Source: Gammaproteobacteria bacterium (lineage in GTDB: Bacteria; Pseudomonadota; Gammaproteobacteria; UBA1113). From it: 64,000 nucleotides of DNA. The position numbers and the translations under genes are program-made. Shown piece by piece: positions 21,046 through 45,442 of the stretch; the stretch's first letter is position 1; each line of letters opens with the position of its first letter. Below the pieces are notes generated by a model. It had not been told where the DNA came from, searched no databases, and worked only from the letters and a program-made list of their open reading frames with translations. The DNA is taken from contig JAGVJK010000006.1 in assembly GCA_020051155.1 (NCBI GenBank), positions 24,719-88,718 of the forward strand, given 5' to 3'.

Positions 21046-21240
21046 GATTTTATCTTCCTCTTTAGCTCAACATCTGTACTAATAATAGTCAAACATCAGG
21101 AAGATCTCGCTTATAGCATCAAAATAACTCATTAGCGCATGATTATGTGTTTGATTTATAGTCTATCATGCAATGGAACCTCTCTAGCGTCTCTGGTAGG
21201 CAGGTTGGGAGAGGTTTAACTGAATAATATTTATAAAGCA

Positions 21241-21524
21241 TGGGGGAGGGAAGGAGGTTGTGGCAGCCCGTCCGTGGGCCAGGGGTTTCCATGTAGAATG
21301 TAGATTGTGAAGTTTATCGGGAAGGTTTTGTAGTGATGTCCTATTTACTACAAATACCTACTGATCATCCTTGGTGCCATATGGCTAAAGGTTCCATCCT
21401 TTAGCCCATCCGTCCTGGATCACATGGCAATTCGTCCCTCGGCTGCTGATACCTATCCATCGATATCATTTGGTTGATGGCCCTCTAATCCTATAGGGGC
21501 ACACTCCGTATCAAAGGCATGGCA
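21241..21524 (-). ncRNA. Putative CsrA/RsmA-binding RNA (CsrB/RsmY/RsmZ-like); ends approximate
   Basis: 12 GGA motifs (AGGA/ANGGA) on the minus strand, about half in hairpin loops, e.g. GGCTAAAGG-ATGGAA-CCTTTAGCC and GCCC-ACGGAC-GGGC. Confidence 0.72.
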
Positions 21525-21680
21525 CTAAACGAAACATTCCCTCTCTTTTAATGCCCGGACCCATTGTTCATACAATTCTTTTGCTTGCGTAAACTTATCA
21601 AGAACTAGTAAATTTTGTATCTCTTGTTGAATGCGTTCAGGAAGTAACCCAAAATTGCTTTGTTTGTCATCTTTGCTCAT
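21525..21680 (-). CDS. Small hypothetical protein (51 aa)
   Basis: ATG at 21680 preceded by AGAGG RBS; helical MSKDDKQSNFGLLPERIQQEIQNLLVLDKFTQAKELYEQW. Confidence 0.6.
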   Translation of the reverse strand: MSKDDKQSNFGLLPERIQQEIQNLLVLDKFTQAKELYEQWVRALKERECFV

Positions 21681-21875
21681 AATAAAACCTCTATTTTTTT
21701 CGACGGCCTTATCTTCAACGAGTTCAATTATTAGGCAAACAAAAATGAAAATCAATGATTATATTCTAAATTTAACCCTTTATTTTCTGGGGCTTTTTTT
21801 AAGCAGAGGGTATAAGGAAATAAAAACATGGATCGCTCACACTTCACCATGCTTTAAAAAATGAAATAAAAGAGG

Positions 21876-22394
21876 TTAAGGTTTATGATACTCCGCAGAG
21901 CCTGATTGGCCAGCGCCAGAATAAACTTTAAGAAGAATGTGGTGAATACAATGCTGATGCAATTCTAAGGGCTCAGCAATTAATCGTTGTAAAAACCATC
22001 GTGATAACTCTTCAACCGTAATATTAGCCACCGGTAAAACTTTCACATCGCGCTTTAAGAAGGGGATCTTTTCTTGATTAAAATGAACATAAAGGTAATC
22101 GCCATCTTCTTCTAATCGCTGATAGGGTGATTCACCAGGGATTAATACCCATTCGCTGAGTTCTTTACACAAAGCCCGTAATTTTGCTTTATAAATCCCA
22201 TAATCGAAAGTCATACCATTTTCAGTCACTTCCGCGGTGATCGCAGCATACATATGAAAATTGTGACCATGTAACCGTTCACGATGAGTGCTAGAAAAAA
22301 TGGTGTAGTGTCCCGCAGCGAAAGACATATCTTCTTTATCTAACTCAATGGTTGATAATCGAAGGGAGGTTGAGTGGTTGTGTGATGAAGTCAT
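21876..22394 (-). CDS. 6-pyruvoyl-tetrahydropterin synthase / QueD family protein
   Basis: FAAGHY, ERLHGHNF, NITVEELS T-fold Zn-binding motifs. Confidence 0.85.
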   Translation of the reverse strand: MTSSHNHSTSLRLSTIELDKEDMSFAAGHYTIFSSTHRERLHGHNFHMYAAITAEVTENGMTFDYGIYKAKLRALCKELSEWVLIPGESPYQRLEEDGDYLYVHFNQEKIPFLKRDVKVLPVANITVEELSRWFLQRLIAEPLELHQHCIHHILLKVYSGAGQSGSAEYHKP

Positions 22395-30603: not shown

Positions 30604-30677
30604 TGGGCCCACTAGGACTTGAACCTAGGACCAAAGGATTATGAGTCCTCTGCTCTAACCAACTGAGCTATGGGCCC
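30604..30677 (-). tRNA. tRNA-Ile2 (anticodon CAT, lysidine type); CCA not encoded
   Basis: GGGCCCATAGCTCAGTTGGTTAGAGCAGAGGACT-CAT-AATCCTTTGGTCCTAGGTTCAAGTCCTAGTGGGCCCA cloverleaf; downstream of rpoD like ileX. Confidence 0.92.
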
Positions 30678-45254: not shown

Positions 45255-45442
45255 GATGCTATCCAGAACTGCCGTTTTCAGTGATCGTTGCCCTGAACCA
45301 TGAAGTTCAGGTGGGGGTCTCTGGGCTGTATCAGGCGTCCCATGAATGGGCGGCACAACAACAACGATTTTCGACCTCCATATAGAAGCTATTTAACGGT
45401 TCGGCAACGAAAAACCTAATTCCGAACAAACCAGACAGCATC
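45255..45442 (-). ncRNA. ssrS: 6S RNA
   Basis: 188-nt region whose ends pair (GATGCTGTCTGG / CTGGATAGCATC), internal CCTGAAC..GGTTCAGG hairpin and ACGGCA; canonical zapA-ssrS-ygfA position. Confidence 0.88.

Follow-up and report, generated by a model that had tools for sequence, protein, structure and literature searches.

What does the stretch at positions 21241-21524 of the DNA window analysed here encode, if it encodes anything? The window is the whole sequence of 64,000 nucleotides (nt) that was examined (C14:24719-88718 of the host assembly, G000, which comprises 1.82 Mb in 42 contigs at 84% completeness and 42% G+C), and the stretch is read on its minus strand. A preliminary description, made from the letters alone, had taken it for a free RNA resembling CsrB/RsmZ that sequesters CsrA. 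The stretch is built like a CsrA/RsmA-titrating RNA, to an extent that chance does not explain. Judging from its sequence, we lean towards reading it as a CsrA-titrating (sponge) RNA that would most likely form the 3' part of a 51-amino-acid (aa) gene's mRNA.

GGA motifs, hairpins and genome rank of the stretch

On the minus strand, 21524-21241 carries 12 GGA, at 21507, 21491, 21458, 21437, 21415, 21411, 21399, 21395, 21370, 21341, 21290 and 21273. All 12 have the form A(N)GGA, and the same strand holds 5 TCC, a clear strand bias. The recount agrees with the 12 AGGA/ANGGA motifs reported earlier, and the six hairpins drawn at that time (H1-H6) are all present where they had been placed. The elements are as follows, with unpaired probabilities for the GGA in the loop unless stated otherwise.

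21264-21524 (-): GGA-rich RNA body, about 260 nt, with 12 A(N)GGA and six hairpins, H1-H6
21480-21500 (-): H1, AGGA in the loop of a bulged stem; unpaired probability 1.0
21447-21468 (-): H2, 7-bp stem and 8-nt loop with AUGGA; the GGA is mostly paired in the global ensemble (unpaired 0.29)
21408-21420 (-): H3, 4-bp stem and loop AGGAC (unpaired 1.0); a second GGA lies in the 3' arm (unpaired 0.05)
21383-21406 (-): H4, 9-bp stem and hexaloop AUGGAA; unpaired probability 1.0
21327-21354 (-): H5, 8-bp stem and 12-nt loop with AUAGGAC; unpaired probability 0.98
21264-21281 (-): H6, stem GCCC/GGGC and hexaloop ACGGAC; unpaired 0.98; the best conserved element

We called a GGA loop-displayable if at least 4 consecutive pairs, with at most one G-U, could close a loop of 4-12 nt containing the whole GGA. 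Nine of the 12 qualify under this fixed rule. In the thermodynamic ensemble computed for the 300-nt tail, an unpaired probability of at least 0.98 applies to 5 of the 12, and the mean unpaired probability is 0.54 for GGA compared with 0.44 overall. Taken together, the two counts make the earlier estimate of about half in loops a fair one. [quoted passage not shown]

Across 3.62 million genome windows of 284 nt, the mean GGA count is 3.0 (standard deviation 1.8), and only 0.034% of the windows hold at least 12. The loop-displayable count has a mean of 1.29 (standard deviation 1.19) and a genome maximum of 10 that is found at this locus; all 17 windows reaching 10 lie here. Fourteen loci in the genome have at least 8 loop-displayable GGA, and an open frame of at least 100 aa runs over 13 of them and over this locus not at all; among those 13 overlaps, three (C40:125051-125334, C26:50828-51111 and C17:19152-19435) are only partial or only just reached. 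When the tail was shuffled 1000 times with dinucleotides preserved, 12 GGA were reached in 8 shuffles and 9 loop-displayable GGA in none. The stretch is single copy in the genome, which speaks against a repeat or mobile element, and no frame longer than 57 aa crosses it, which speaks against a pseudogene; none of the frames that do exist is common to the related metagenome locus L059.

Four DNA runs contain low-depth contigs with pieces from relatives that are about 87-94% alike over parts of 20900-21960. These pieces differ by 9 letters and 4 gaps in 21330-21482 and by 37 letters and 3 gaps in 21048-21342, counts that do not show the fate of the GGAs or the stems.

The small gene and its tail in related organisms

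The GGA-rich stretch starts at the stop codon of a small gene, no promoter-like site lies between the two, and the sole promoter-like site upstream of the stretch on the minus strand stands before that gene. The idea of a free intergenic RNA, as first proposed, gives way to the following arrangement.

21727-21755 (-): sigma-70-like promoter, TTGATT-17 nt-AATAAT, from a promoter scan with 9 of 12 matches, about 45 nt before the small-gene ATG
21681-21726 (-): leader, read from the sequence, with a Shine-Dalgarno-like AGAGG 8 nt before the ATG and no GGA
21525-21680 (-): conserved small gene, 51 aa plus stop by translation, with homologues in L059 and in L061/L142
21187-21263 (-): C-rich, G-poor zone, including the C-rich tract 21263-21241 and the motif CAACCTC common to the tails of relatives

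The homologues of the small protein in L059 and L061/L142 share 48-60% identity, and because the three close proteins have 20 invariant columns in common, the small open reading frame (ORF) is a real gene. Its product has no family in Pfam or NCBIfam. The 10 matches in the protein collection are all unnamed or 'hypothetical', the closer relatives of the small protein there (P0005-P0008) being 55-86% identical, and the ESM Atlas returns only hypothetical clusters with scores under 0.9. A predicted complex of two CsrA chains with the small protein scored 0.04 against a mark of 0.32, which is evidence neither way.

At the other end of the stretch, the C-rich tract noted earlier is present at 21263-21241 (-). 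In windows of 78 nt, the C/G ratio changes from 0.5-0.8 over 21524-21343 to 1.9-4.4 over 21368-21187, and the same switch occurs in L059. The C-rich, G-poor zone may be a Rho-loading site, which fits it at least as well as the anti-Shine-Dalgarno arm first suggested from the letters, an idea that nothing but those letters supports.

The small gene with a GGA-rich tail is found at three further loci in two related organisms. One is L059; the other two, L142 (also present in L061) and L146, belong to G005, a member of the host family and a metagenome-assembled genome (MAG) labelled Gammaproteobacteria. In L059 the order is a methyltransferase, a protein like 6-pyruvoyl tetrahydropterin synthase (PTPS; 71% identical to that of the window), a homologous 52-aa ORF, the tail and a small secreted protein. 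The L059 tail has 14 GGA in 329 nt, 8 of them loop-displayable. That of L142 has 16 in 440 nt (12 loop-displayable) and a strand count of 16 GGA to 0 TCC, and all 4 GGA in the 150 nt of the L146 tail are loop-displayable. The observed counts of 9, 8, 12 and 4 loop-displayable GGA in the window, L059, L142 and L146 were reached by 0, 6, 2 and 10 of 1000 shuffles, respectively. Pooling the four tails gives 46 GGA, 42 of which match A(N)GGA; 44 have full flanks, and 30 of these carry A at position -2. The promoter layout is also repeated, as TTGCAT-17-AATAAT at the same distance in L142 and L146, and is less clear in L059 (by eye).

Similarity from tail to tail is confined to islands of 9-22 nt at H6, at H4 and at the terminator of the G005 copies, plus the 9-mer CACAACCTC of the C-rich zone, which occurs three times in L142. 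For H4, alignment succeeded with a single locus, L059, whose counterpart has the loop-proximal letters in common and a different outer stem that nevertheless still pairs. H6 alone could be aligned across the window, L142, L146 and L059, with 16 of 16 cells paired, one compensatory change from C-G to U-A and one change from G-C to G-U. By sequence comparison, then, the tails of the relatives keep the pattern of GGA in loops and not the letters.

The tail of the first G005 copy, L142 1657-2096 (G005 C65), holds a tandem repeat of about 154 nt with 86% identity between copies and a partial third copy; every unit closes with a terminator-like hairpin that has GGA in the loop and a U-run behind it. 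By eye, three hairpin-plus-U-run terminators precede the next gene in L142 and one in L146. These terminators close the tail before the next gene and speak against its being the leader of that gene. The first G005 pair lies 2.3 kb from PTPS owing to an inserted gene, and the second copy has other neighbours; the tail therefore travels with the small gene.

Csr partners, the sponge reading and its rivals

Three CsrA genes in the host assembly are over the Pfam cut-off (C16:67689-67922 (-), C29:63947-64132 (+) and C22:456-659 (-)). L4 and R44, residues critical for RNA binding (PMC7652899, excerpt), are invariant in all three. A regulator of the UvrY/SirA/GacA family scores 314 bits against a cut-off of 280, and a full-length BarA/LetS-like kinase scores 712 bits to BarA and 662 to LetS, both below the equivalog cut-offs. 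The preliminary description had suggested looking for csrA and letA/gacA elsewhere in the genome; csrA and a regulator gene of the UvrY/GacA family are there, together with a BarA/LetS-like kinase. CsrA occurs in all 21 family genomes with 1 to 18 matches each (G016 18, G005 17, G014 16 and the host 3), and the paralogues are strongly expanded in parts of the family.

Within the 84%-complete assembly we found no other candidate for a CsrA antagonist RNA, whether among matches to RF00195 and RF00166, GGA-dense segments, UvrY/GacA box sites or loop-displayable loci. The best scores of RF00195 and RF00166 on the whole genome, 13.8 and 17.5 bits, fall elsewhere, on weak terminator-like pieces only. 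The box consensus used was of the TGTAAG-N6-CTTACA type (confirmed in PMC3171408); a Legionella-specific LetA motif lay outside the scan. The genome holds 68 sites with no more than 2 mismatches, and not one is exact. The GGA-rich side was checked at eight of them: seven are wholly or mostly in open frames, and the eighth, C26:55727-56027, is mostly a palindromic repeat element. The GGA-dense segments C40:95434-95709, C27:20550-20855 and C24:33546-33851 are copies of the same repeat, not sponge-like RNAs. This intergenic repeat (also at C26:55710-55954) has arms of the type GTCATCCTGAGCG ... CTCAGGATGAC around GAAGGATC / GGATCCTTCG and inflates local GGA counts; a similar element lies at 3530-3690 of L059. 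Separately, about 150 nt at C30:23740-23969 (+), right after a stop codon, has 8 GGA and several hairpins and could be a weaker sponge-like tail; it stands outside the 25 best loci listed for loop-displayable GGA.

How would a sponge made at this locus work? Transcription would start from the sigma-70-like promoter at 21755-21727, pass through the small gene and continue into about 260 nt with twelve A(N)GGA. Five to nine of these motifs would be presented in short hairpin loops, the form that CsrA dimers bind best. As one dimer can bridge two motifs, a single RNA could take up several dimers on H1-H6 and the GGAs between them. Such titration would leave less free CsrA and would release CsrA-repressed mRNAs. 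The transcript would probably be ended by Rho in the C-rich, G-poor zone at 21263-21187, and the G005 copies would end at their hairpin-plus-U-run terminators. From the arrangement of the locus we infer every one of these steps: that it is transcribed, and jointly with the small gene, that CsrA binds the RNA and is titrated by it, and that Rho ends the transcript. The anatomy, the partner system and the pattern in relatives speak in favour of the sponge first proposed; its form as a free small RNA (sRNA) is not supported, and an Rfam family, a UvrY/GacA box and an intrinsic terminator are lacking.

Several results weigh against the sponge. No Csr/Rsm family was matched in a cmscan search against Rfam, either over the whole window at gathering scores or over 20900-21900 with E values as high as 10, which speaks against membership in the classical families. 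In the 330 nt upstream of the small gene, the best UvrY/GacA site has 4 mismatches in 12 positions, which is the mode of the background (1481 of 3000 random windows), and the box is equally missing upstream in L059, L142 and L146. LetA-type control is therefore not indicated. The scan for intrinsic terminators over 20800-22000 gave 0 terminator-like sites. In the ensemble of the 300-nt tail, 7 of the 12 GGA are partly or mostly paired, and the global fold energy is ordinary (minimum free energy -86.4 kcal/mol, z = -1.14; 13 of 100 shuffles equal it). The covariation of H6, with four sequences, is not significant, 149 of 500 shuffles doing as well, and covariation overall rests on 2-4 sequences. 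Finally, only two other organisms carry the tail. In the 17 other family genomes with PTPS, no non-coding GGA peak lies within 1.5 kb downstream (in L017, a peak downstream of PTPS was rejected because it runs antisense to a pilin-like gene). Within the limits of the search, the tail is therefore restricted to the window genus, the G005 genus and the L059 organism. A DNA search with 21100-21700 in 41 relatives recovered only the window itself and a 39-nt piece at chance level.

Four other explanations were considered. The tail could be a cis-acting, CsrA-responsive 3' region with a local effect, either on the stability or translation of the small-gene mRNA or on CsrA-dependent Rho termination before the next gene, and no global titration. 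It is part of an mRNA or adjoins one, its G-rich portion with the GGAs gives way to a C-rich, G-poor zone, and CsrA controls Rho-dependent termination in the pgaA leader (PMC7652899, excerpt); unlike classical sponges, moreover, it has no UvrY/GacA box. We nevertheless regard a purely local role as unlikely: twelve sites far exceed the needs of known cis targets, and the G005 tail, triplicated by tandem duplication and closed by intrinsic terminators in a genome with 17 csrA matches, is better explained by selection for binding capacity than by a local switch. That the GGAs form a long CsrA-repressed 5' leader of the downstream gene for a secreted Tyr/Arg/Pro-rich protein (21045-20566) is improbable. 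This gene lies on the same strand 479 nt downstream and has a GGA in its ribosome-binding site, and a similar Tyr/Arg-rich protein follows the tail in L061. In L142/L061, however, that gene follows the tail only after terminators and a gap of about 480 nt, and the next gene in L146 is unrelated. Here, about 220 nt lie between the end of the GGA body and the start codon, and a promoter-like site (21169-21142) stands between tail and gene.

The stretch might instead be a structured RNA or a region of termination that has a different partner or function, and whose GGA richness is a by-product of purine-rich hairpins and has nothing to do with CsrA. The missing Rfam match and the ordinary fold energy would suit such an RNA, which we think quite unlikely given that the GGA flanks match the CsrA consensus (the pooled 42 of 46, and the A at -2), that the GGAs of each of the four tails are found in loops more often than those of its shuffles, and that the strand bias is strong both here (12 to 5) and in L142 (16 to 0). 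Chance, or a functionless, decaying gene remnant, is the least credible explanation and can be given very little weight. The GGA count and the short hairpins do each occur elsewhere in the genome when taken alone; the locus, however, ranks first in the genome and is the sole non-coding one among the best 14, the pattern recurs behind the same gene at three other loci, and the stretch is a single copy with neither a long frame nor one common to L059.

Known Csr/Rsm RNAs, the wider small-gene family and the surroundings

On paper the stretch is a Csr/Rsm sponge, yet it stands outside every curated family. Like CsrB/CsrC of Enterobacteria and CsrB1/CsrB2 of Shewanella, it spans several hundred nt and has numerous A(N)GGA, many of which lie in the loops of short hairpins. 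Its GGA density, 12 in 284 nt, we take to be close to that of CsrC. In Shewanella, RNAs of the CsrB type were first predicted from AGGA/ARGGA motifs in single-stranded regions (PMC3171408, excerpt). In contrast to CsrB/CsrC, the stretch has no sequence or structure match and no intrinsic terminator, and it is joined to a protein-coding gene; CsrB/CsrC genes have a UvrY/GacA box (PMC3171408, excerpt), whereas the upstream region here has none.

The host resembles Legionella pneumophila and Pseudomonas, with their RsmX/RsmY/RsmZ circuit, in possessing a LetS/BarA-like kinase, a regulator of the LetA/GacA/UvrY family and CsrA paralogues. The stretch is presumably about twice the length of RsmY/RsmZ. 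RNAs of the RsmX/RsmY/RsmZ type sequester CsrA in L. pneumophila (PMC5338858, excerpt). The small gene was found in none of the 5 named Legionella genomes searched. If co-transcribed with the small gene, as its position would allow, the stretch would resemble RsmW of Pseudomonas aeruginosa, an RsmA-binding RNA that lies in the 3' part of a protein-coding transcript and is derived from a 3' untranslated region (PMC4950607 and PMC13622538, excerpts). No homology to RsmW is shown, the upstream gene is different, and here gene and RNA remain paired from genus to genus, with the order reversed in other lineages. By analogy, RsmW is the nearest precedent in architecture. The proposed transcript would also resemble dual-function RNAs (SgrS/SgrT, SR1/SR1P and Spot 42/SpfP), in which a small ORF and a regulatory RNA part occur together. 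To our knowledge, the known dual-function RNAs act by base pairing, whereas here the RNA part would titrate a protein. A 2025 review, in its accessible text, counts CsrA-binding sRNAs as a class in which small ORFs might yet be found and describes no case of a coding RNA that titrates a protein (PMC12612679).

Of 401 genomes sampled from the class, 27 have a member of the small-gene family (40-60 aa). Its distant loci, which we define as the 34 loci L143-L145 and L154-L184 holding homologues of the small gene in 27 other genomes, show a different layout. None of the 34 has at least 5 GGA in the 200 nt downstream of the small gene. On the upstream side, read on the gene's strand, 12 of 34 (in 7 of 27 genomes) have at least 5 GGA in 200 nt, compared with about 6.6% of host-genome windows, kin not being independent in this count. 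With the same dependence among kin, a UvrY/GacA box with at most 2 mismatches lies within 330 nt upstream at 6 of 38 loci, compared with 27 of 3000 random windows. Some of the upstream GGA-rich segments, that of G351 at least, end by eye just before the small gene in terminator-like hairpins with GGA in the loop. The GGA-rich RNAs at 18 related loci have no Rfam match. At L181 (G058 C78:6801-8926) the homologue contains an in-frame TAG and may be a pseudogene.

The order of gene and RNA may have been reversed in the clade of the window, with the gene first and the RNA second, and the UvrY/GacA box lost there. Tentatively, and with clear reservations, the small protein and the GGA-rich RNA could belong together as a conserved two-part module of the Csr circuit, encoded by a single dual-function transcript in which the RNA part titrates a protein. 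Should this module exist, the small protein would be a new player in, or an output of, a switch of the LetS/LetA-CsrA type in relatives of Legionella and Coxiella.

CsrA switches decide between replicative and transmissive lifestyles in Legionella and its relatives, and the rapid evolution of CsrA decoy RNAs means that, beyond a few genera, curated models fail to find them. The locus offers a concrete candidate decoy for an uncultured lineage in which CsrA, a regulator of the LetA/GacA type and a kinase of the LetS/BarA type are present but no Rsm RNA is recognisable. Its unusual part is the architecture, a decoy that would sit behind a conserved small protein gene with an ordinary promoter and no UvrY/GacA box. 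As the small gene is tied to a GGA-rich RNA here and, on its other side, in several other families, a transcript that is both coding and a protein sponge may exist, a combination mentioned as no more than a possibility in the accessible text of the 2025 dual-function RNA review (PMC12612679). The same tie suggests a comparative rule, which is to seek Csr decoys beside the small gene in such genomes.

In the collection searched, the order of the host consists of one family with 21 species, and its genus is represented by this sole species. The PTPS-like protein is 63-71% identical to proteins of MAGs labelled only Gammaproteobacteria or Proteobacteria and about 52-55% identical to those of many Legionella species, Legionella being the best match that has a name. 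These matches place the host, on sequence grounds, as an uncultured relative of the Legionella/Coxiella group and not as Legionella. The genes around the stretch, in minus-strand order, are as follows.

23566-22391 (-): Methyltransf_28 gene, the first in this order
22409-21876 (-): PTPS-like gene, after Methyltransf_28
21680-21525 (-): small ORF, 51 aa, after PTPS and directly before the GGA-rich stretch
21045-20566 (-): gene for the secreted Tyr/Arg/Pro-rich protein, the next gene after the stretch
aroQ, accB and accC (-): last in the order, after the secreted-protein gene

The secreted protein (20566-21045 (-)) has a signal peptide and an extreme Tyr/Arg/Pro-rich repeat region of YYRP-like units, and matches no Pfam or NCBIfam family. 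The Tyr/Arg-rich secreted protein that follows the tail in G005 is encoded at L061 7922-8512 (+). The sole Rfam matches in the window are a 6S RNA at 45256-45440 (-) (51.1 bits, gathering score 46.4) and a tRNA at 30604-30677 (-) (75.1 bits).

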